64,000 nt of DNA, from the NCBI RefSeq assembly GCF_030013205.1, contig NZ_CP122648.1. One strand, written 5' to 3'. The stretch is from Escherichia coli. GTDB lineage: Bacteria > Pseudomonadota > Gammaproteobacteria > Enterobacterales > Enterobacteriaceae. A model generated the notes under the pieces. That model was not told the origin of the DNA, ran no database searches, and saw nothing but the letters and a program-made list of their open reading frames with translations. A program made the translations under genes and the position numbers. Position 1 is the first letter of the stretch; every line of letters begins with the position of its first letter. Shown piece by piece: positions 6,416 through 56,985 of this stretch.

Positions 6416-7303
6416 TTATTCACCGCGCAGGATCTGGCGGAAATGGGAAACCAGCGGACGTTGGTTGGCTTTATGCCAGGCTGCCCATAATTGCGTTGAA
6501 TAATTCATCCACGGCAATTCACGTAATACCACCCCTTCCGGCGCATTATGACGCAGACTATGTTGAATTAAGGCCAGACCTAATCCCGCAGCGACCAAAC
6601 CTAATGCCGTGAGGGGTTCACCCGCTTCCAGGCGAATATCAGGATTAAACCCGGCGTTAACACAGGCGGCGACAAAATGATCGCGAGAATGCGCATCGTC
6701 GTTATGAATCACCGCAATCCACTGCTCATCGCCAAGTTGTGACGCGACAAGGTTTTCCTCCTGCGCCAGAGGATGATTTTGCGGTAAGGCCAACAACATT
6801 CGATCATCCAGAACCTGAATATATTCCAGATCCTGCTCGCTGTCGGTGGGCGGCGTATCGACCAGAGAAAAATCGAGACTGCGCTGGCGCAGGCCTTCAA
6901 TCTGGGTAGCCGGTGGTTGGCTGTAAAGTGCGATATGCACATTCGGACGCGATACACGTAACGTACGTAGCGCCGTAGAAAGCACACCGGAATGCATGGC
7001 GTTTTCGATATAGCCAATACACAAGCCACCATCTTCCCCCCGTCCCAGGCGTTTGCCTAACGACTCCAGGCGGTTGGCGTGTGTCAGCAACGAACGTGTT
7101 TCGGCAAGGAATGTCTGTCCATCAGCGGTCAGGCGAATGCGCTGCTGATTACGCTCAAACAGCGTCAGCCCCAGCCGTTCTTCCAGTTGTGCAATCTGGC
7201 GGCTCAGCGGTGATTGCGAGATATGTAATCGCTCGGCTGCGCGTCCCACGTGCTCTTCTTCTGCGACCACCACGAAGTACTTCAGTTGGCGTAAATCAAT
7301 CAT
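6416..7303 (-). CDS. LysR-family transcriptional regulator
   Basis: ATG at 7303 gives MIDLRQLKYFVVVAEEEHVGRAAERLHISQSPLSRQIAQLEERLGLTLFER, a typical LysR wHTH N-terminus. It is divergent from the downstream reductase operon. Confidence 0.85.
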   Translation of the reverse strand: MIDLRQLKYFVVVAEEEHVGRAAERLHISQSPLSRQIAQLEERLGLTLFERNQQRIRLTADGQTFLAETRSLLTHANRLESLGKRLGRGEDGGLCIGYIENAMHSGVLSTALRTLRVSRPNVHIALYSQPPATQIEGLRQRSLDFSLVDTPPTDSEQDLEYIQVLDDRMLLALPQNHPLAQEENLVASQLGDEQWIAVIHNDDAHSRDHFVAACVNAGFNPDIRLEAGEPLTALGLVAAGLGLALIQHSLRHNAPEGVVLRELPWMNYSTQLWAAWHKANQRPLVSHFRQILRGE

Positions 7304-23365: not shown

Positions 23366-23872
<507 letters not shown>

Positions 23873-26748: not shown

Positions 26749-27140
26749 CGATTTATTCCTGTATGTTTGCTCGTAATTTGAGCCTGGCAACACGAGGTTG
26801 CATTGCTGAATAGGGAGAGACTTCACCCTCTACAGAAGTCAATGGTCGCCATCACAAAAGCGATGGGTGATGAATAACGACCATTACAGCCTCTGAATCA
26901 GTTATTAATATCGGTAGAATGACAATCGACGGCTTTAGATACTGATATCTACGCATTGAACGGTATTTAACGCCGTCAGAAATGTCATCACTTTGTTAAA
27001 TATAGATCACAATTTTGAAACCGCTCGGGATATCAGCGAAAACATAAGCAAAAGTGAATGTTTTAAGAACATTCCGTAAGCGGCTAATAAGGAAGGGAAA
27101 TTGACAGGGCGCAGCGGCTACCGCGCCCTGGAGGCAAGAA

Positions 27141-28727
27141 TTAATGCTCGCGGGTCTGGTGGAACTGAACGTCCGGATAACGTTCCTGTGCCAGGCGCAG
27201 GTTAACCATGCTGGTAGCGATGTAAGCGAGATTATCGCCGCCATCAAGCGCCAGTTGGCTTTCGTTCTTACGCTTGAACTCTTCAAATTTCTTCGCGTCC
27301 GCACATTCTACCCACCGGGCGGTGGCAACGTTGACTGATTCATATACTGCTTCAACGTTGTATTCGCTCTTCAGGCGCGATACCACTACATCAAACTGCA
27401 GCACACCAACCGCACCAACGATCAGGTCGTTGTTGGAGATCGGACGGAACACCTGCACCGCGCCCTCTTCGGAAAGCTGTACCAGCCCTTTGAGCAGCTG
27501 TTTTTGCTTCAGCGGATCTTTCAGGCGGATACGACGGAACAGTTCTGGTGCGAAGTTCGGAATACCGGTGAACTTCATCATCTCACCCTGGGTAAAGGTG
27601 TCGCCGATCTGAATGGTGCCGTGGTTGTGCAGGCCGAGGATATCGCCAGGATACGCTTCTTCAACGTGCGAACGGTCACCCGCCATAAAGGTCAGCGCGT
27701 CGGAGATAACCACATCTTTCGCGGTGCGCACCTGGCGCAGCTTCATGCCTTTTTCATATTTACCGGATACCACGCGCATAAACGCCACGCGGTCGCGGTG
27801 TTTCGGGTCCATGTTGGCCTGAATTTTAAATACGAAGCCGGTAAATTTGTCTTCGCTCGCTTGTACGGTACGGGTATCAGTCTGACGCGGCATCGGCGCA
27901 GGTGCCCACTCCACCAGGCCATCCAACATATGATCGACGCCGAAGTTACCCAGCGCAGTACCGAAGAATACCGGAGTGATTTCGCCCGCAAGGAACAATT
28001 CTTTGTCGAACTCGTTAGACGCGCCTTTCACCAGTTCCAGTTCGTCACGTAGCTGCTGTGCCAGATCTTCACCAACCGCAGCGTCGAGATCCGGGTTATT
28101 CAGCCCTTTAACAATACGGACTTCCTGAATCGTGTGGCCTTTACCGCTCTGATAGAGATAGGTTTCGTCTTTATAAAGGTGGTAAACGCCTTTAAACAGC
28201 TTGCCGCAGCCAATCGGCCAGGTGATCGGTGCGCAGCCGATTTTCAGCTCGTTCTCAACTTCATCGAGCAGTTCCATCGGGTCGCGGATATCACGGTCAA
28301 GTTTGTTCATAAAGGTGAGGATCGGCGTGTCGCGCAGACGGGTAACTTCCATCAGCTTACGGGTACGATCTTCAACACCTTTTGCGGCGTCGATAACCAT
28401 CAGGCAGCAGTCCACCGCCGTCAGGGTACGATAGGTATCTTCCGAGAAGTCTTCGTGCCCCGGGGTGTCGAGCAGGTTAACCAGGCAATCGTGATACGGA
28501 AACTGCATCACAGACGTAGTAATGGAGATCCCACGCTGCTTTTCCATCTCCATCCAGTCCGACTTAGCGTGCTGGTTGGAACCACGGCCTTTTACTGTAC
28601 CGGCGGTCTGAATGGCCTGTCCGAACAGCAGCACCTTCTCGGTGATGGTAGTCTTACCGGCGTCCGGGTGAGAAATAATTGCAAAGGTTCTTCTTTTCGC
28701 TACCTCTGCGGCCAAAAGGCTTGTCAT
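27141..28727 (-). CDS. prfC: Peptide chain release factor 3, with prophage-supplied first codons
   Basis: From residue ~8 onward ([33 protein letters not shown]..) it matches RF3 to the C-terminal ..VQFHQTREH. The N-terminus here is MTSLLAAE, whereas the orphan native 5' end at 53497-53571 encodes MTLSPYLQ. Confidence 0.9.
28666..28679. repeat. att core copy 1 (prophage/prfC junction)
   Basis: GGGTGAGAAATAAT (minus strand ATTATTTCTCACCC, codons I-I-S-H-P of prfC) is repeated exactly at 53507-53520. Confidence 0.7.
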
Positions 28728-28747
28728 AATTGTTGTCTCTTTAATTA

Positions 28748-28862
28748 TGTACAATCATATGTACAAAGAAAAATTCATGCCGCTGATTGTACATTTTGGA
28801 GGTATCAGAGCATAGCAGAACATGATCAGTAGGTGTATTTGTAGCCAAAGAACATTTGTACA
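28748..28862. repeat. Cluster of four TGTACA-core sites (candidate integrase arm-type sites, prfC-proximal end)
   Basis: TGTACA at 28748, 28760, 28788 and 28857, in the contexts tATGTACAAt, tATGTACAAa, aTTGTACATt and tTTGTACATg. A mirror cluster lies at 53286-53342. Confidence 0.45.
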
Positions 28863-28887
28863 TGCAGCAATCTTTGTTCTATTGACA

Positions 28888-28931
28888 CTGTTTATTCATA
28901 CAGTTAAAAATAACACTGTATACAAACACAG
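28888..28931. promoter_or_regulatory. Two tandem LexA (SOS) boxes in the dinI-like promoter
   Basis: CTGTTTATTCATACAG (28888-28903) and CTGTATACAAACACAG (28916-28931) both fit CTGT-N8-ACAG. TTGACA at 28882-28887 precedes box 1, and the ATG of the DinI-like gene is at 28947. Confidence 0.75.
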
Positions 28932-28946
28932 TGTAGAGGGATTTTT

Positions 28947-29195
28947 ATGCGTATTGAGATCTGCATAGCTAAAGAGAAAATGACTAAAATGCCAAGCGGT
29001 GCTGTGGATGCGTTAAAGGAAGAATTAACTCGACGCATCAGTAAGCGTTATGACGATGTAGAGGTGATCGTAAAAGCCACCAGCAACGATGGCCTTTCTG
29101 TTACGCGCACCGCCGATAAAGATTCAGCTAAAACTTTTGTTCAGGAAACTCTGAAAGATACCTGGGAGTCTGCTGACGAGTGGTTTGTTCATTAA
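28947..29195 (+). CDS. DinI-like protein (prophage-encoded)
   Basis: 82 aa, [59 protein letters not shown], parallels E. coli DinI (MRIEVTIAK..AIDAL..ELSRRI....ILQETWESADDWF). Confidence 0.85.
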
Positions 29196-29226
29196 GTTCA
29201 TCATCTCTGGACACCATTCACTTGTA

Positions 29227-29256
29227 TTGACTTTAAGATCATTAAATTGTAATAAT
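29227..29256 (+). promoter_or_regulatory. Candidate sigma70 promoter of the RT cassette
   Basis: TTGACT (29227-29232), a 17-nt spacer, then TAATAA preceded by TG. This predicts a start near 29262. Sequence match only. Confidence 0.35.
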
Positions 29257-29260
29257 TCAA

Positions 29261-29397
29261 AAGGATGGGGCAGGTTTTTCCTCTTGTGCATGCAAGGGCG
29301 GCTCTGATAATGAACAGTAATATTTTACTGTTGAGCTTATGCTCACTGATCCTGCCGGGCAGGATGTTCAATGATTCCAATATATCCTGCCCCTTCC
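29261..29397 (+). ncRNA. Candidate structured leader / ncRNA upstream of the SLATT-RT pair
   Basis: Closing helix GGATGGGGCAGG (29263-74) with CCTGCCCCTTCC (29386-97). Internal hairpins at 29313-29332 (8 bp, perfect), 29333-29344 and 29349-29365 (17-nt palindrome). The 8-mer ATCCTGCC recurs. Confidence 0.35.
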
Positions 29398-29417
29398 GCT
29401 TTTAAAAAGGATCTTTT

Positions 29418-29969
29418 ATGCATGACAATATTTGGTTTACATATAAAGCCCGTATCCAAGCGCACCATCGACTAGAATGGCTTGAAAAGCACTCTCAATT
29501 TATCCTCGTTTGGTATGCTATATTGAGTGCGGTACTTTCAATTGTAACGTTGCGATTTCCAAAAGTTCTAGGAGATAACACAGATATCGTTGCGGCAATA
29601 CTTTCGGTGGCCCTACTGGGTATTTCGCTGATCGTATCTAACCTAGATTTTCGTGGTCGAGCAATAGCCATGAGAAGGAATTATATTGCACTACAGCGAC
29701 TCTATTTTGACATTACCACCAGTCAACAGTTAACTCTTGAACAGAAAGAAAAATATTTTAATTTGCTCAATGAGGTTGAGAATCACCGTGACATAGATGA
29801 TAAAATTTCAAGGGTAACTCAAGTTGGACTTACGACGAGGATCCCCACACAAAAAGAAAAAATAATTGTTATTTTATGGATATTACTTCGAATATTTACT
29901 ACTGCCGCCCTTTATATACTCCCATTAATATATCTTTGGATTGACTATGACTGCAAGCAGAATTTTTAA
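29418..29969 (+). CDS. SLATT-like 2TM (+1 C-terminal TM) membrane effector candidate
   Basis: 183 aa. An N-terminal amphipathic helix (IWFTYKARIQAHHRLEWLEK) is followed by TM hairpin FILVWYAILSAVLSIVTL / IVAAILSVALLGISLIVSNL, a helical middle and a C-terminal TM IIVILWILLRIFTTAALYILPLIYLWI. RBS AAGGA upstream. The 3' end overlaps the RT start. Confidence 0.6.
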   Translation: MHDNIWFTYKARIQAHHRLEWLEKHSQFILVWYAILSAVLSIVTLRFPKVLGDNTDIVAAILSVALLGISLIVSNLDFRGRAIAMRRNYIALQRLYFDITTSQQLTLEQKEKYFNLLNEVENHRDIDDKISRVTQVGLTTRIPTQKEKIIVILWILLRIFTTAALYILPLIYLWIDYDCKQNF

Positions 29970-31317
29970 AAAGTCATTCTCGAAAAAAAACCTTCTAAAA
30001 GTATACACTGAAAAAATCAAAGAATCAGGAGCGATTGGCATAGATCGGATTCGCCCATCAAAACTTGATTTGACAATAAAAAATGAGATCGCTTTCATTT
30101 TTGAAAAGGTTAACTCTGGCAATTACAAATTTACAGCATATAAAGAAAAATTAATATCTAAAGGCGCTAACTCTACACCCAGACAGATTTCCATACCAAC
30201 TGCTAGGGACAGAATTACTCTTAGAGCTCTCTGTGAATGCCTTACGGAAATATATCCTAACTCCAGATTAAAACTACCACATACAGTAATTGACTCATTG
30301 AAAGAAGCATTAAACAGCAGTCTTTATGCTGAATATGCAAAAATAGATCTTAAAAGTTTCTATCCTTCAATTGAACATAAATTGATAATTAATGCAATAA
30401 AAAATAAAATTAGAAAAAAAGAAATTAGACAGTTAATAACATCATCATTAATCGTGCCTACTGTAAGTGGAACAACAGGAAGCAAAGGTATCCCGAATAA
30501 TACCAGAGGAGTACCTCAGGGATTAGCGATATCAAACATTTTAGCTGAAATATCACTATCTAATTTTGATGATGAAATCAATAAAATGCATGACATATGG
30601 TACATGCGATACGTTGATGACATTCTTATTTTAACACCAAAATATCAAGCAACAAAAATAGCTTCTCATATCATTGATAAGCTTCAATCATTAAATTTAA
30701 ACCCACATCCATTAAATGAAGAGAACTCAAAATCCAAAGTAGGCAGCTTGGATGAAAGTTTTAACTTTTTGGGATACCACATAGAAAATCGAGAATTATT
30801 GATAAAACATGAGAGCATTCTTAGATTTGAGTCATCTTTAGCAAGGATTTTTACTGCATACAGGCACGCTCTACTACAAGCTAAAAGTAAGCGTGATAAA
30901 GAACGAGCTGTTGCATATTGTCAGTGGAAACTAAATCTCAGAATTACGGGATGTGTGTTTGAAGGTAAACGATTGGGATGGGTATCGTACTTCTCACAAA
31001 TAACCTCAACAGCTCAACTTCGCTCTGTTAATCATACTATCAATAATCTTATCCGCCGATTCGGCCTTTCATCAGAAATAAAACCAAAGTCTTTGATTAA
31101 AACTTTCTATGAACTCCGCAGAGGTAGAGCGGAGACTTTTAAATACATACCTAACTTTGATAATTTACATATATCTCAGAAACGAGAACTTGTTTCTATG
31201 TGGATAGGTAAAGAGAAGGAAAAAAAACTTAGCAATAGTGAAATAGAGAGGAAGTTTAAATTTAAAATTGCGAAATCAGTAAAAGAGCTTGAAGAGGATA
31301 TCTCAGGAATATCATAG
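29947..31317 (+). CDS. Reverse transcriptase (non-retron, group-II-intron-like / UG-DRT-like)
   Basis: Motifs RQISIPTARDR, AKIDLKSFYPSI, RGVPQGLAISNILAEI, YMRYVDDILIL (YVDD at 30610-30621), FNFLGYHI and a maturase-like LGWVSYFSQ. ATG at 29947 (TTG at 29941 is also possible). Confidence 0.9.
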   Translation: MTASRIFKKSFSKKNLLKVYTEKIKESGAIGIDRIRPSKLDLTIKNEIAFIFEKVNSGNYKFTAYKEKLISKGANSTPRQISIPTARDRITLRALCECLTEIYPNSRLKLPHTVIDSLKEALNSSLYAEYAKIDLKSFYPSIEHKLIINAIKNKIRKKEIRQLITSSLIVPTVSGTTGSKGIPNNTRGVPQGLAISNILAEISLSNFDDEINKMHDIWYMRYVDDILILTPKYQATKIASHIIDKLQSLNLNPHPLNEENSKSKVGSLDESFNFLGYHIENRELLIKHESILRFESSLARIFTAYRHALLQAKSKRDKERAVAYCQWKLNLRITGCVFEGKRLGWVSYFSQITSTAQLRSVNHTINNLIRRFGLSSEIKPKSLIKTFYELRRGRAETFKYIPNFDNLHISQKRELVSMWIGKEKEKKLSNSEIERKFKFKIAKSVKELEEDISGIS

Positions 31318-31380
31318 ATATGTAATCCATTAAGTCCTTTAAATATACCGCAATAAACACACTATTTAAACTCACAAACC

Positions 31381-31421
31381 AGCCGCAGTATCCTGCCATG
31401 GCAAGTTACTGCGGCTTTTTA
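31381..31421 (+). terminator. Rho-independent terminator after the RT gene
   Basis: AGCCGCAGTA..TACTGCGGCT is a 10-bp stem followed by TTTTT. The loop carries another ATCCTGCC copy (31390-31397). Confidence 0.65.
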
Positions 31422-31424
31422 TAT

Positions 31425-31727
31425 TTAACGGATCAACAGCCAGATCAGCAGACACGCCACCACCGGCACAGCAAAATCCATCAGGCTTGCCACATCCCAC
31501 GCGCGCGGATCAAAACCGCCCCACCACGGCATATTCATTCGCTTGCCATGCCCGAACATTTCAATCCAGCGATATTCTGCCTGGGTGTGTTCACGCGCAA
31601 TGAAGAACGTACAACCGGCTATCGCCCCGTAAGCCCAGTTCCCGGTAAAAAGACCAATCAGTAGCTGCGCAGCCACAGCACAAAGCGCATGAAGGAAAGG
31701 TGTTATATCCATTTTCATCCTACCCAA
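31425..31727 (-). CDS. Prophage small membrane protein, function unknown
   Basis: 100-aa ORF with hydrophobic segments (FLHALCAVAAQLLIGLF, AIAGCTFFIA, FAVPVVACLLIWLLI). Last gene of the tail-fibre block. Confidence 0.5.
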   Translation of the reverse strand: MGRMKMDITPFLHALCAVAAQLLIGLFTGNWAYGAIAGCTFFIAREHTQAEYRWIEMFGHGKRMNMPWWGGFDPRAWDVASLMDFAVPVVACLLIWLLIR

Positions 31728-31754
31728 TAAAACGGGGCGCTCGGCCCCTTAATA

Positions 31755-32795
31755 TTATTTAGACGCAAGCGCCGCCTCAATTGCAGATAATCTTTGTCTT
31801 AATTCTGCGTTTTCTTCTTCCAGTGCTGTTATCCTGTCGTCTGACTCTCTGGCTACCTGAACAAGCAAACCCGTTACGCCTGAGTAATCGACGGTATAGT
31901 ATCTTTCTCCCTCTTCTCCATCAGACCCATTGTCCCCGCTCTTGTACTTTATTGTGCTACCAACTGATTCAGGGATTGCATTAAGTGCCTCTTGCGCAAT
32001 AACGCCAGCATAAGGCATACCATTAGACTTGAGACGGTAAGTATACCCATTCATTAATCTGATGCGCTCAGTGGCATTATCAATAACCTGAATGTTTTCT
32101 TTAAGATCTCTGTCCGACACCTGGTCGAATGATGTAGCCTTGCATGGCCCGTTTATCTCAAGCTGATAGGTTTTATCTGGGTTCCTTTGTGCATAAAACA
32201 AAAAAAGCCCGCCATCATCCCTAATTTCATAAACAACTGGACGACTGGAATTTCCCCATAATAACGTCGACACACCAGAATACGCCGTACCTTGCGTGTT
32301 TAGTGTCATGGTCGACCCGTGATTAGCATATTTGATCTGCAATGAGTCTGTATTATCAAACTTAATAAGCGCGTTACTTCCCCGCACACCATACGACATG
32401 AGACAGTTCCCCATCTTAAGGTAACCATCACTGCCTGGAAAAATTAAAGTTCCTCCGTAAAGATCACTAAAGTCCCAAAAGATACCTTTTGTCCCGTTAT
32501 GTGTGACGATCCTCGTCATTGTATCTTTAGTACCATCAATATTTTTTCTGGTATATATGTCACTATAAGCGTTTTCCGTTTCACCAGTCTTATTTGACAA
32601 ATGCAGCTTACCGCTGAATATAGTTCCAGTTGTTGGCAATGTTTTTTGATCATAGATTACATTGCAATAACCATTCCATGTTGTTTTATTGTCTACATAA
32701 TATTTTGTTGCGTAGTTTCCTTGATCGGTTTTTAATTTACTAACATCCGATTTTAGCGTTTTGATGTCATCAGGAATTACTGTTTTTGTAACCAT
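31755..32795 (-). CDS. Tail fibre/spike protein with C-terminal intramolecular chaperone (peptidase S74-type) domain
   Basis: C-terminal ..SDRDLKENIQVIDNATERIRLMNGYTYRLKSNG..AGVIAQEALNAIPESV..YYTVDYSGVTGLLVQVARE.. followed by a coiled coil (ENAELRQRLSAIEAALASK). This is typical of the self-cleaving chaperone domain. Confidence 0.75.
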   Translation of the reverse strand: MVTKTVIPDDIKTLKSDVSKLKTDQGNYATKYYVDNKTTWNGYCNVIYDQKTLPTTGTIFSGKLHLSNKTGETENAYSDIYTRKNIDGTKDTMTRIVTHNGTKGIFWDFSDLYGGTLIFPGSDGYLKMGNCLMSYGVRGSNALIKFDNTDSLQIKYANHGSTMTLNTQGTAYSGVSTLLWGNSSRPVVYEIRDDGGLFLFYAQRNPDKTYQLEINGPCKATSFDQVSDRDLKENIQVIDNATERIRLMNGYTYRLKSNGMPYAGVIAQEALNAIPESVGSTIKYKSGDNGSDGEEGERYYTVDYSGVTGLLVQVARESDDRITALEEENAELRQRLSAIEAALASK

Positions 32796-32807
32796 TGTCT
32801 TACTCCA

Positions 32808-33077
32808 TTAAGCCCATGTCCTTACATGCTGATCTGTCGTAATGAAAGGCATTAAAGAAGATATGTTTTTACTGCTATCAACAATCCTCATGTTTACGAA
32901 AAAACCACCGCGATCAATGCCTGTACATCTTTCGTTTTCTGGCTCCTCGTAATCAATAATGCAGCCAATAACATCAACAAGAACCCCATTTTCTTCTTCA
33001 AGACTGAACAGGCCACTGTCATATACAATTGCGTTAAACTGTTCTCTGTTATCGAATCGTAATGTTATATCCCGCAT
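32808..33077 (-). CDS. Hypothetical tail-fibre-module protein
   Basis: 89-aa ORF, start-stop coupled to the upstream gene (overlap at 33077). No recognisable motif. Confidence 0.4.
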   Translation of the reverse strand: MRDITLRFDNREQFNAIVYDSGLFSLEEENGVLVDVIGCIIDYEEPENERCTGIDRGGFFVNMRIVDSSKNISSLMPFITTDQHVRTWA

Positions 33078-38020: not shown

Positions 38021-38110
38021 AAGCAACAAACGACATTGCGCGTTAAGATTTTCTTAATATTTAAGAAATATATTTTTTAATCTCATTTATTTTTGCAAAA
38101 GACTTTTCAT

Positions 38111-38686
38111 ATGCAGCGTCGAGAAATAAAGAAAATTACTTATTTAATCACTTTGATTTTAACTACTCTTTTGTTTGTTTATTTTTTAAGAACACCCACC
38201 ACAATCAATATGAAACAGGCGCATAAAATAAATCAACAACACCAGACAATTTTCCTTATCCGTCACGGTGAACGATGTGACAGAAGCAAAAATGCATGTC
38301 TCTCAAGCAATAAAGGAATTACCGTCAATGGTGCCATTAAAGCTCGTGATTATGGAAAAATATTTAGCAATACTTTCCCGTCATTCAGCCTTTACTCCAC
38401 GGATACCATACGGACAATGCAGACAGCCTGTTTTTTCTCTGGAGGAAAAGCAGCCTCCCGGATACCGTTGGCTGCAACATGTGGACTTGATGCTGCAAAG
38501 AACATACTCAAATTGTCATCCGATAATAAAACTACCGTTATATTCACCCATAATCATTGCCTGACACAAATAGCAAAAAAAATGAAATGGTGGAAGTTAA
38601 AGCCAGAATATCTTGAAACACTGGTTCTTCATATCGAAAACAATCGTCTCATTCTTGACGGAAAACTGACTCACGATAAAGCGTAA
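38111..38686 (+). CDS. Ais/PmrG-like LPS core heptose(II)-phosphate phosphatase homologue (histidine phosphatase family)
   Basis: ..[85 protein letters not shown]..LDGKL parallels E. coli Ais (..[83 protein letters not shown]..LDGEF). Has an N-terminal signal anchor. Confidence 0.8.
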   Translation: [191 protein letters not shown]

Positions 38687-50761: not shown

Positions 50762-51781
50762 ATGACTTCTGAAAGCAACAGAATTGGGAAGATGGGTGTA
50801 AACTACATAGAAGGTGTATTGACAAGATGGGGATGGGGATATCAATCAATTTCGCAAGAAAATGATGATGGGTTTGATGGCTTAATATATATAAGATCTA
50901 AACGATTTGAGGCGAAAGATAAAGAAAACCGGAGTAAACAATCTTGGGAGTTCACTGGTGGGTTGATTCATGTACAAGTAAAAAGTGGAGATACATACAT
51001 TAGTAGTCGTAATAAAGATGAAATAAGGATCAAAATAAAAAACCTCAATGAAAAGAAGAAAATATGGTCTAGATCGTCTATTCTATGCATACTTGTATTT
51101 GTTTTTTGGGATCATAATGAAGTTGAGTATTCCTACTGGGCTGATCTTAAATCTGAATTAACTTATTGTGATAACAGTAGTACGCTAATAAAAATCCCCT
51201 TAAAAAATAGATTTATGAGATCCCAAGAGTGTAAGGGGCCTTTAAGACGACTTGCAAGGGTATCGGCCAACTATGCAGATAAGCCGCTGATAGATTTATC
51301 AAAATTTGACTCATTAAGTGGTAAGCTACCTACAAGTCTAAACAGTAACCTAAATTGTTCTTTGAAAAAGAAAGGTATTGAATTCTATCAGAAATGGCGA
51401 TTAATTGGGGCTACAAACCCTTATTTTGGTCCTGTTCTAATAAACAGAACTGGTTGGAGTCATATAACTCGACGAAATCGCCCAATAGCAAGAATTGAAG
51501 CAAGCTTTAATTTGTTACCTTTAGCAGCAAGAATTATAAATGATGTATCTACATGGCGAATGTTAACACCCGTACGACGGTATGATAATAGAAAGGATGG
51601 TTATGTTTGCTTTATAGATTTCGTTGGGTTAACAGCCAAAGTGAATTTAAAGAATCGCAACTCATCAGAAGTTATGGTTGTGTTAAAAAGGGAGAGGAGG
51701 TATAAACAGGGTGAAGACTGTTCCTCTGCGAAAACAAGATTATGGTTTTACACTGTTTATGAACCTGGAAGAGGAAAATAA
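50762..51781 (+). CDS. DUF4365-like (PD-(D/E)xK nuclease fold) N-terminal domain protein with unknown C-terminal domain
   Basis: 339 aa and AT-rich. The N-terminus ..IGKMGVNYIEGVLTRWGWGYQSISQENDDGFDGLIYI..(27 aa)..GGLIHVQVKSGDTYI fits the G..E....GW.....DDG.DG....VQVKS pattern. Confidence 0.6.
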   Translation: MTSESNRIGKMGVNYIEGVLTRWGWGYQSISQENDDGFDGLIYIRSKRFEAKDKENRSKQSWEFTGGLIHVQVKSGDTYISSRNKDEIRIKIKNLNEKKKIWSRSSILCILVFVFWDHNEVEYSYWADLKSELTYCDNSSTLIKIPLKNRFMRSQECKGPLRRLARVSANYADKPLIDLSKFDSLSGKLPTSLNSNLNCSLKKKGIEFYQKWRLIGATNPYFGPVLINRTGWSHITRRNRPIARIEASFNLLPLAARIINDVSTWRMLTPVRRYDNRKDGYVCFIDFVGLTAKVNLKNRNSSEVMVVLKRERRYKQGEDCSSAKTRLWFYTVYEPGRGK

Positions 51782-52052: not shown

Positions 52053-53276
52053 TCAGTTAGAGTCTGAGATAGTACAAGTAATGATCGATTCAACTCTCTC
52101 CCACCATGCCTGGTAGGCTTTACGCTGTTCTTCTAGATAATCGCTCTTATCATAAACTTGCCATACCCCTGGCAGTTTATGGCCGAGCATTATTTCTGCA
52201 ATATGAGGCGCAGTAAGATCAGAAAAGTTTGTTCGTGCTGTTCGCCTCAAATCATGAAGAGACCAATGAGGGAATTGATACCCCAAACGCCGCCATGCGT
52301 ACTGCATTAAATTGTAAGGCAGCGACTGCAATGATGTTCGTCCAACGGGTTCCCTGCTTCCTTCCTTAGTAAAAAGCATATCGGAACCATTGTTCATAGA
52401 GATAACGTACTTTATAAGCTCTTCAACCGGTTCAATAATGGGGCGCTTTAGCGGTTCGCCTGTTATATCCCCTGTCTTATGTCGTTCTGGCGGTACAGTC
52501 CATACCTTATTAATGAAATCAAAATCATCCACCCTAGCGGTAATTAGCTCTGAACTACGGCAGCCAAAATGCAGCAATAGTTTAATGAAGGCCCGGTATT
52601 TAGGAACCATTCGAGAACCATCGATCGCAGCATAAAGGATTTTAATTTCATCATGTGTCAGAAACCGTTTCTTCTGACCTTTACGGATATCCATATCTTT
52701 ACCCGTGATATCCGACAGCGGGCGGGTTTCAATGAGCTTTCTCTTATAGGCCCAGACATGGGCCTGCTTTGCGTTAATTAGCAATCGGTCTGCTATTGCT
52801 GGAGTCTTAGTGCTAAGAGGCTCTAAGACTTCTAACCAATCATGCAATGTAGCTGCATCGTGAGGGATACTCCCGATTTTAGAGAACAGGTGCAGCTCAA
52901 ACGAGCGGAGTATCTGTTCAGAACCTTTTTTATTTTTTACACAATATGCTTCATACCAGGCACGGATCACAGACTCTACCGTCATGGCTTCAGTAGCTTT
53001 TCGTTTTTCAGCCTGCTTGACCAATCGTGGATTACGGTTTGACTCGAGTTCACCACGAAGACGGAGAACTTCTTCTCTGGCCTCTTTTAATCCAGTTGCC
53101 GGGTAAGTTCCGATATCAAGACGCTCACCTTTCCCTGCCCATTGATAACGATATTGGAACACTACGCGACCTTTCGGTGATACTCTGACAGACAGACCAT
53201 CACGATCGGATTTAACCAAAACCTTATCACGTTCCTTTCCAACGACTGAACGCAACCACGCATCAGACAGCGCCAT
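52053..53276 (-). CDS. int: Tyrosine integrase, P4-type (DUF4102 N-terminal arm-binding domain)
   Basis: 407 aa, MALSDAWLRSVVGKERDKVLVKSDRDGLSVRVSPKGRVVFQYRYQWAGK..DIGTYPATGLKEAREE... The catalytic ..HDLRRTARTNF..MLGHK..VYDKSDY has R, HxxR and Y. Confidence 0.92.
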   Translation of the reverse strand: MALSDAWLRSVVGKERDKVLVKSDRDGLSVRVSPKGRVVFQYRYQWAGKGERLDIGTYPATGLKEAREEVLRLRGELESNRNPRLVKQAEKRKATEAMTVESVIRAWYEAYCVKNKKGSEQILRSFELHLFSKIGSIPHDAATLHDWLEVLEPLSTKTPAIADRLLINAKQAHVWAYKRKLIETRPLSDITGKDMDIRKGQKKRFLTHDEIKILYAAIDGSRMVPKYRAFIKLLLHFGCRSSELITARVDDFDFINKVWTVPPERHKTGDITGEPLKRPIIEPVEELIKYVISMNNGSDMLFTKEGSREPVGRTSLQSLPYNLMQYAWRRLGYQFPHWSLHDLRRTARTNFSDLTAPHIAEIMLGHKLPGVWQVYDKSDYLEEQRKAYQAWWERVESIITCTISDSN

Positions 53277-53285
53277 TACTCACCT

Positions 53286-53342
53286 TGTACAAATCGCAAA
53301 ACACCTCTGCTGCTTTGTACATTATGTACAAGTATATGTACA
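53286..53342. repeat. Cluster of four TGTACA-core sites (candidate arm-type sites, int-proximal end)
   Basis: TGTACA at 53286, 53316, 53325 and 53337, between the int start and the att core. Confidence 0.45.
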
Positions 53343-56624: not shown

Positions 56625-56711
56625 GCGAAGGTGGCGGAATTGGTAGACGCGCTAGCTTCAGGTGTTAGTGTCCTTACGGACGTGGGGGTTCAAGTCCCCC
56701 CCCTCGCACCA
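56625..56711 (+). tRNA. leuV: tRNA-Leu (CAG)
   Basis: 87 nt, GCGAAGGTGGCGGAATTGGTAGACGCGCTAGCTTCAGGTGTTAGTGTCCTTACGGACGTGGGGGTTCAAGTCCCCCCCCTCGCACCA. First of three tandem copies. Confidence 0.97.
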
Positions 56712-56739
56712 AAAACCACGTTGATATTGCTCGCACTGG

Positions 56740-56826
56740 GCGAAGGTGGCGGAATTGGTAGACGCGCTAGCTTCAGGTGTTAGTGTTCTTACGGACGTGG
56801 GGGTTCAAGTCCCCCCCCTCGCACCA
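56740..56826 (+). tRNA. leuP: tRNA-Leu (CAG)
   Basis: 87 nt. Identical to its neighbours except T for C at 56787 in the variable-arm stem, which changes a C-G pair to a U-G wobble. Confidence 0.97.
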
Positions 56827-56860
56827 AACGAGGCGATATCAAAAAAAGTAAGATGACTGT

Positions 56861-56947
56861 GCGAAGGTGGCGGAATTGGTAGACGCGCTAGCTTCAGGTG
56901 TTAGTGTCCTTACGGACGTGGGGGTTCAAGTCCCCCCCCTCGCACCA
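56861..56947 (+). tRNA. leuQ: tRNA-Leu (CAG)
   Basis: 87 nt, identical to the first copy. Confidence 0.97.
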
Positions 56948-56985
56948 ATTATCTTTACTTCCTTTCTTGTTTCTTCCTTGATTTT

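Follow-up and report, generated by a model that had tools for sequence, protein, structure and literature searches.

Probable identification of a complete DRT10 (UG17) anti-phage system, the Eco3 allele, at the end of a defective lambdoid prophage of Escherichia coli

We analysed a 64,000-nt stretch of Escherichia coli DNA (assembly GCF_030013205.1, contig NZ_CP122648.1; hereafter the window, numbered from its first letter), in which a reverse transcriptase (RT) gene follows the gene of a small membrane protein, and found that this locus is almost certainly (about 97% probability) a complete and intact DRT10 (UG17) anti-phage system of the Eco3 allele, made up of a non-coding RNA (ncRNA), a SLATT_5 protein and the RT. 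No feature of the sequence counted against this assignment. The RT-SLATT pair is already known, and existing publications describe the system with its RNA component and its product, as well as much of how it works. The UG17-SLATT association was described in a 2022 survey of UG/Abi RTs, which also reported an E. coli strain in which sbcB is essential because of such a locus (PMC9226505). DRT10 was named by Tang et al., with three E. coli homologues that protect against BASEL phages (bioRxiv 10.1101/2025.10.16.682844), its subtypes A-C were defined by Sanchez-Nieto et al. (bioRxiv 10.64898/2026.04.29.721553), and the system was studied by genetics, biochemistry and cryo-EM in 2025-2026. An earlier account of this DNA, made from its letters alone (the sequence-only reading), was right that RT-SLATT associations had been noted in comparative genomics (PMC9226505) and mistaken that none had been mechanistically characterised, as the DRT10 preprints of 2025-2026 do so.

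The RT provides the most direct evidence. Its open reading frame (ORF), as checked in the window, extends from the ATG at 29947 to 31317 on the + strand and encodes 456 aa; when read from the TTG at 29941, the product has 458 aa and is residue for residue NCBI OKX54664.1 by exact-sequence look-up. OKX54664 is the RT of the Eco3 DRT10 system, and its record starts two residues early (Ramirez et al., bioRxiv 10.64898/2026.06.29.735271); therefore, the window encodes an RT protein identical to the published one. The profile searches were consistent with the look-up: the PADLOC model RT_UG17 matched with an E value of 5.9e-159 (527.5 bits) over its entire length (1-429 of 429), while the second-best PADLOC family, Drt3a, reached 5.5e-37 (126 bits) and Drt9 only 7.3e-20. 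The full-length RT_UG17 match and the identity with OKX54664.1 both place the RT inside the UG17 clade, which belongs to the Class 2 UG/Abi RTs.

All RT motifs that had been read by eye were confirmed in position, namely RQISIPTARDR (30181-30213), IDLKSFYPSI (30343-30372), GVPQGLAISN (30508-30537), the YVDD active site (30610-30621, residues 222-225), FNFLGYH (30760-30780) and LGWVSYF (30973-30993), all on the + strand, as were the two ORFs and the 23-nt overlap between them. The codon of the final residue, Ser456, which is the C-terminal priming residue, is located at 31312-31314 (+), so that the RT possesses both the C-terminal hydroxyl residue and the YVDD of DRT10. S456, R371 and YVDD were unchanged across 18 RT homologues with identity down to 59%; in the published Eco3 work R371 is the template-boundary contact, paired with G104 of the ncRNA.

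The general libraries said little beyond the fold. Pfam RVT_1 matched at 9.4e-21, and the maturase-like resemblance of the C-terminal region, which the sequence-only reading had noted, was borne out by a sub-threshold GIIM match alone (E = 0.036, 14.5 bits, cut-off 23 bits). No NCBIfam model matched the RT above its cut-off: the top model was the group II intron RT/maturase TIGR04416 (8.7e-42, 143.5 bits, cut-off 300), and this model as well as Drt3a (112.7, cut-off 200), Drt2 (76.7, cut-off 390), the retron St85 RT (58.8 bits, cut-off 235) and Drt4 fell far short of the respective cut-offs. RefSeq labels the protein merely as a reverse transcriptase domain-containing protein, and a literature search on the RefSeq accessions WP_000127306 and WP_000543833 found no paper. 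An assignment to DRT3, DRT2 or DRT9 was considered and rejected, with PADLOC scores far under that of UG17, NCBIfam Drt3a and Drt2 scores below their cut-offs, and no second RT near the cassette among the window ORFs and annotation. An AlphaFold2 model of the RT (predicted local distance difference test score, pLDDT, 80.8) was by Foldseek closest, among solved folds, to the group II-type RTs G2L4 and GsI-IIC and to DRT9 RTs. Neither a DRT10 RT nor a SLATT entry was among the matches of the PDB sequence search and Foldseek, and the cryo-EM models of the June 2026 preprint (bioRxiv 10.64898/2026.06.29.735271) were not among the PDB matches. That preprint describes Eco1 and Eco3 RT-ncRNA complexes with two RTs per ncRNA (Ramirez et al., bioRxiv 10.64898/2026.06.29.735271).

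The partner gene is the ORF at 29418-29969 (+), which encodes 183 aa. Its product had been described as a SLATT-like membrane protein, and this proved correct in three libraries: Pfam SLATT_5 (E = 4.8e-28, 98.3 bits, cut-off 29.5), NCBIfam SLATT_5 (8.6e-39, 132.9 bits, cut-off 60) and the PADLOC model RTasSLATT for RT-associated SLATT proteins (7.9e-57). Hydropathy gave three hydrophobic segments at about residues 27-47, 55-77 and 149-172, in agreement with the sequence-only reading; the third, which it had regarded as an extra C-terminal transmembrane segment, is not extra, because the SLATT_5 profile spans residues 2-172. A ribosome-binding site, AAGGA, is located 8 nt 5' of the ATG. We took 44 related loci from one-genome-per-species contigs, and a SLATT homologue was found immediately 5' of the RT in 39 of them. 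Deletion of SLATT in the published Eco3 system abolished defence (Tang et al., bioRxiv 10.1101/2025.10.16.682844). The tightly coupled SLATT_5 gene upstream of the RT corresponds to the architecture of subtype A, to which we assigned the locus from architecture and host phylum only.

Upstream of the SLATT gene we found the third component, a DRT10 ncRNA of 137 nt at 29263-29399 (+), which was recognised by fold, covariation and the published Eco3 landmarks. Its minimum free energy was -54 kcal/mol (z = -4.66), and none of 200 shuffled sequences folded equally well. When ncRNA position 1 was set at 29263, about 7 nt 3' of the promoter -10 element, all ten published Eco3 landmarks (U15, G44, U62, U64, G104, U110, G111, C116, A117 and U119) were matched. 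Moreover, the length of 137 nt, the 4-nt linker between stem-loop 1 (SL1) and SL2, and the G+C contents of SL1 (75%) and of the SL3 stem (25%) agreed with the published Eco3 values. According to the fold, the SL1 basal stem is formed by 29263-29274 paired with 29386-29397 and encloses SL2 (29279-29301), Loop A (29302-29312), SL3 (29313-29332), SL4 (29333-29344), SL5 (29349-29365) and Loop B, the template loop (29366-29385), all on the + strand.

For covariation, 26 upstream regions of the related loci were aligned, including those of Xenorhabdus, Photorhabdus, Buttiauxella, Pseudomonas, Stutzerimonas, Stenotrophomonas and Bordetella. The 26 loci had a common fold, with a basal stem, four stem-loops and, after these, a loop in which about 20 nt are unpaired; 97.7% of cells were paired and 17 of 34 pairs had compensatory changes. 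The observed score was attained by none of 500 shuffles, and slid controls were about 50% paired. Together with the z-score of the fold, this establishes the structured ncRNA that is a feature of DRT10. Within the template loop of nearly all loci, 4-7 variable bases lie between two copies of a short element, for example (U)CAA(U/A); this A-B-A' arrangement kept its position in 24 of 26 loci, with predicted units of 8-11 nt. In the window, ncRNA nt 107-119 read CAAUGAUUCCAAU (CAAU-GAUUC-CAAU), between the last stem-loop and the basal stem as in DRT10: the template A-B, CAAU-GAUUC (CAAUGAUUC, nt 107-115), is located at 29369-29377 (+) and is copied into the complementary DNA (cDNA) repeat GAATCATTG, and the realignment segment A', CAAU (nt 116-119), at 29378-29381 (+) is the site at which the nascent cDNA re-anneals. 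An Rfam scan of 27000-33000 at E <= 1 returned no family and no retron msr; the DRT10 ncRNA is missing from Rfam 15. The window's leader is a separately functioning ncRNA that carries the RT template, and therefore the system is tripartite; the sequence-only reading had seen the leader merely as a leader and missed this component.

The template also varied among close relatives. We compared template alleles in the loci L046-L048 (about 7170-7185) and the IMG/VR loci L052-L074. The window (29369-29381) and two other loci carry CAATGATTC-CAAT, 13 close E. coli-type loci carry a sister allele, CAACGGTTC-CAAT (CAACGGUUC as RNA, replacing CAAUGAUUC), with a predicted cDNA repeat of GAACCGTTG, and farther loci carry CAACGATTC at the template. 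Outside the template the ncRNA was almost invariant among alleles. The change in the sister allele fits the published tolerance of the template.

A sigma-70-type promoter is located at 29227-29256 (+), with TTGACT, an 18-nt spacer containing TG, and AATAAT (10 of 12 matches, extended -10), and the start expected about 7 nt 3' of it coincides with ncRNA position 1 at 29263. No further promoter-like site was found on the + strand between this promoter and the SLATT ATG. The promoter serves the ncRNA and probably the whole cassette; because no other promoter-like site precedes the SLATT ATG, we presume that it would give rise both to the ncRNA and to a translationally coupled SLATT-RT message, the latter arising by read-through or processing beyond the basal stem and its UUUU tail. 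At the other end, an intrinsic terminator at 31381-31426 (+) consists of a hairpin, GCCGCAGTA...TACTGCGGC (31381-31415, -21.3 kcal/mol), 64 nt 3' of the RT stop codon, and an adjoining T-run (TTTTT) within TTTTTATATTT; it was overlooked by the automatic scan because its loop is long. The cassette's own promoter-like element, structured leader and terminator, which the sequence-only reading had proposed, were therefore all recovered (29227-29256, z = -4.66 and 31381-31415).

The published work supplies most of the mechanism. Defence by Eco3 requires the RT active site, SLATT and the 137-nt ncRNA upstream of SLATT (Tang et al., bioRxiv 10.1101/2025.10.16.682844), and in the published Eco3 work Ser456 too is required for protection against many E. 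coli phages. DNA synthesis is primed on the hydroxyl of the RT's own C-terminal Ser456, the product is kilobase-long single-stranded (GAATCATTG)n DNA, and the A-B-A' element (nt 107-119) programmes a telomerase-like addition of repeats, with the C116G and A117U mutations causing loss of both repeat synthesis and defence (bioRxiv 10.1101/2025.10.16.682844). According to the published Eco3 work, one RT of the two reads the 9-nt CAAUGAUUC, its template in the loop after SL5, copying halts at a boundary set by SL5 through the G104-R371 contact, the new DNA strand then detaches and pairs again with the CAAU further downstream, and the cycle repeats; the repeat DNA stays covalently bound to the RT. 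The cDNA synthesis is constitutive and the ncRNA is expressed from its own promoter, also as published. In the E3659 homologue only, the host 3'-5' exonuclease ExoI (SbcB) holds the cDNA under its toxic level and a phage SSB-like (single-stranded-DNA-binding) protein is needed for activation (bioRxiv 10.64898/2026.04.29.721553). In the mechanism that we consider, the repeat DNA would control the toxic SLATT pore, directly or indirectly, and infection would alter the level or form of the cDNA, upon which SLATT would stop the infected cell. The direction of this control, by which the cDNA either restrains or activates SLATT, is disputed between two groups. These studies likewise propose what the sequence-only reading had suggested, a control of the membrane effector by an RT product.

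Four points weigh against the identification of the locus as the Eco3 DRT10 system. The identity of the SLATT gene and the flanks with the tested construct is presumed from the identity of the RT and the ncRNA landmarks. The published activity is that of a plasmid clone, and its extension to the native single-copy prophage of the window would be by analogy. All three mechanistic papers are preprints (October 2025, April 2026 and June 2026), and the two groups report opposite changes of the cDNA on infection, up in E3659 and down in Eco3.

An additional SOS layer on the same DRT10 system was also considered, in which read-through from a LexA-controlled dinI-like gene would let DNA damage or prophage induction tune the threshold of defence. 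The DinI-like gene is located immediately upstream of the cassette at 28947-29195 (+) (profile match, E = 1.5e-19), and its promoter-like site is overlapped by two LexA-type boxes of the form CTGT-N8-ACAG, at 28888-28903 (CTGTTTATTCATACAG) and 28916-28931 (CTGTATACAAACACAG). From the dinI stop (29195) to the ncRNA promoter the + strand has no terminator-like site, and therefore SOS read-through into ncRNA-SLATT-RT could occur; in addition, the dinI-ncRNA-SLATT-RT block moves together, at lambdoid prophage ends in three chromosomal sites, prfC, yecD and dusA. However, the ncRNA has a good promoter of its own and is independently transcribed in a homologue, the cDNA synthesis is constitutive, a 5'-extended transcript would probably misform the basal stem, and the DinI-like gene is absent from the related loci outside E. 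coli (in other genera) and frameshifted beside an intact cassette in strain SCAID WND1-2021. We therefore regard such a layer as unlikely, and the SOS read-through trigger suggested by the sequence-only reading found no support in the ncRNA promoter, the constitutive cDNA or the distribution of the dinI-like gene. If true, SOS read-through would change either how much SLATT-RT message is made or how the ncRNA matures, and would tie the defence threshold to DNA damage or prophage induction, a layer that is not addressed in the plasmid-based DRT10 studies consulted here.

A retron with a two-transmembrane effector, similar to Ec48, in which the upstream RNA would be an msr-msd and the product a branched msDNA, would also place an RT next to a small membrane protein and a structured upstream RNA, and several database records label homologues as retron-type reverse transcriptases. 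The NCBIfam retron St85 match of 58.8 bits that points the same way is, however, weak and far under the 235-bit cut-off, the Rfam scan gave no msr in 27000-33000, and the published priming is from the protein residue Ser456, not an RNA 2'-OH, with a tandem 9-nt repeat as product, which makes this reading highly improbable. Equally hard to credit is a non-defensive RT of a degenerate group II intron or of group II-like maturase type: TIGR04416 was indeed the top NCBIfam model (8.7e-42), GIIM matched weakly and, among solved structures, the GsI-IIC and G2L4 RTs come closest in both sequence and fold, but 143.5 bits is under the 300-bit cut-off, Rfam contains no intron RNA here, there is no endonuclease domain, the SLATT partner is conserved, the ncRNA is unrelated to intron RNA, and defence was shown experimentally. 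The exclusion of retron, group II intron and CRISPR RTs by the sequence-only reading was right; the retron and group II models stayed below their cut-offs and the Rfam scan was empty. Its candidate, an RT-SLATT system for abortive infection that had not been described and would stand apart from the numbered UG/DRT groups, for which only the RVT_1 and SLATT_5 matches of general libraries and the generic RefSeq annotation could speak, was refuted by the exact-sequence look-up (OKX54664.1) and has practically no chance of being correct, given full-length RT_UG17 at 5.9e-159 versus Drt3a at 5.5e-37, RTasSLATT at 7.9e-57, the name DRT10, and the coverage of the system by the 2022 UG/Abi survey and by three papers on its mechanism. 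That reading had itself named the placement of the RT in a characterised DRT clade with the same partner gene as an outcome that would speak against novelty, and UG17 with SLATT, DRT10, is such a placement.

The DRT10 cassette resides in an E. coli chromosome, of which 9196-51427 of the window is 99.99% identical to strain K_EC180. Its carrier is a defective lambdoid prophage that occupies about 24.6 kb between prfC and yjjG and has its integrase (52053-53276, -) at the end away from the cassette. A direct repeat of 22 nt, ATTATGTACAAnnATATGTACA, imperfect and resembling an attachment (att) site, was observed at 28744-28765 and 53321-53342 and is likely the att core of the prophage. The tail-tip gene of the prophage is truncated and most head and tail structural genes are missing. 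As the sequence-only reading had it, the cassette occupies a prophage-end cargo slot between the DinI-like gene and the tail-fibre block, with tail-fibre, Lom and remnant J genes flanking it on one side, and the judgement that the pair is anti-phage cargo borne by a prophage was likewise right. The noted AT-richness of the pair was also evident, with 34.9% G+C in the cassette (29196-31425) against 49.5% in the window, 53% in prfC and 40-43% in the tail-fibre genes. What the window adds to the published work is the native context of the model allele, single-copy and att-proximal in a defective prophage by prfC, joined to a dinI-like gene with SOS boxes.

Two neighbours were tried as DRT10 components and rejected. 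The DinI-like gene is unlinked outside E. coli and frameshifted in one carrier, and therefore is not a component of the system. A 100-aa hydrophobic ORF at 31425-31727 (-) is convergent on the DRT10 terminator, matched nothing in Pfam, NCBIfam or PADLOC, accompanies the cassette only in prfC-type prophages and has an internal stop in one strain. Both lacked a PADLOC match, were unlinked outside E. coli prophages and were pseudogenised in some carriers.

Among complete E. coli genomes, the cassette was found in 187 of 5426, chromosomal in every case, and at least 16 of them carry it intact with 100% identity. In the collection of sequenced phages, a nucleotide search with the cassette gave no match and a protein search gave one 25% match, to an unannotated fragment. 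Close relatives of the cassette were present in 34 IMG/VR proviral contigs and in none of the deposited phage genomes.

Further observations concern the rest of the prophage and its chromosomal surroundings. A DUF4365 protein of 339 aa (50762-51781, +) adjoins the integrase, with weak PADLOC matches to an Argonaute-associated restriction endonuclease-type model (5.2e-07) and to PDC-M02A (5.6e-04), and may represent a second cargo gene of defence type, at the prophage end away from DRT10. Between a terminase-side fragment and the lysis genes of the prophage remnant lies a gene with the annotation lipopolysaccharide core heptose(II)-phosphate phosphatase (28915-29490 of L001, roughly 38110-38685 of the window, +), which is probably further prophage cargo. 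Between yjjW and yjjV, 23376-23863 contains 4.8 copies of a 101-bp unit with 93% identity and palindromes like those of repetitive extragenic palindromic (REP) sequences (GCCGGATGCGGCG...); because its unit holds such palindromes, we take it to be an ordinary array of bacterial interspersed mosaic elements (BIME/REP). At 56625-56948 there are 2.7 copies of a 121-bp unit, each with a tRNA-like sequence when read by eye, which by this reading is presumably a chromosomal tandem tRNA-Leu cluster.

When compared with known systems, the locus shares with Eco3 DRT10 the RT protein, Ser456, R371, the 137-nt ncRNA landmarks, CAAUGAUUC with CAAU, and the overlapping SLATT and RT genes, and no difference was detected apart from setting, as the papers used a plasmid clone and the window holds the native prophage. 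Eco1 DRT10 and UG17-A of Escherichia sp. E3659 have the same ncRNA-SLATT-RT order, tight coupling, protein-primed tandem-repeat cDNA and need for three parts, whereas their ncRNAs differ in sequence and contain six stem-loops, the repeat length is 7-8 nt, and Eco1 primes from Tyr444. DRT9 (UG28) is likewise a Class 2 UG RT with a similarly shaped ncRNA, protein priming and repetitive copying of a short template, but it makes poly-dA from a U-tract, is hexameric or trimeric, primes from Tyr and has no obligatory SLATT partner. DRT3 (UG3 + UG8), the next-best HMM (hidden Markov model) family, also carries out ncRNA-templated repetitive synthesis and is sometimes associated with SLATT, but uses two RTs and produces poly(dTdG) and double-stranded DNA. 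The SLATT effectors of CBASS (cyclic-oligonucleotide-based antiphage signalling systems) and related systems belong to the same predicted two-transmembrane pore-forming fold family, for which no solved structure was detectable by PDB sequence search with our SLATT protein, and share the role of conflict-system effector; they are thought to respond to cyclic oligonucleotides via fused sensors, whereas the SLATT here has no extra sensor domain and the candidate signal of DRT10 would be a long repeat single-stranded DNA. Finally, DRT10 resembles telomerase in its short RNA template with an alignment segment (A-B-A'), its stem-loop boundary (SL5) and its repeat-addition processivity, and differs in being protein-primed, without TEN or TRBD, with two RTs per RNA, 456 rather than about 1100 aa, and defensive. 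The biology of DRT10 is notable for a telomerase-like mechanism in a minimal protein-primed enzyme, and its authors argue for a link to the origin of telomerase.

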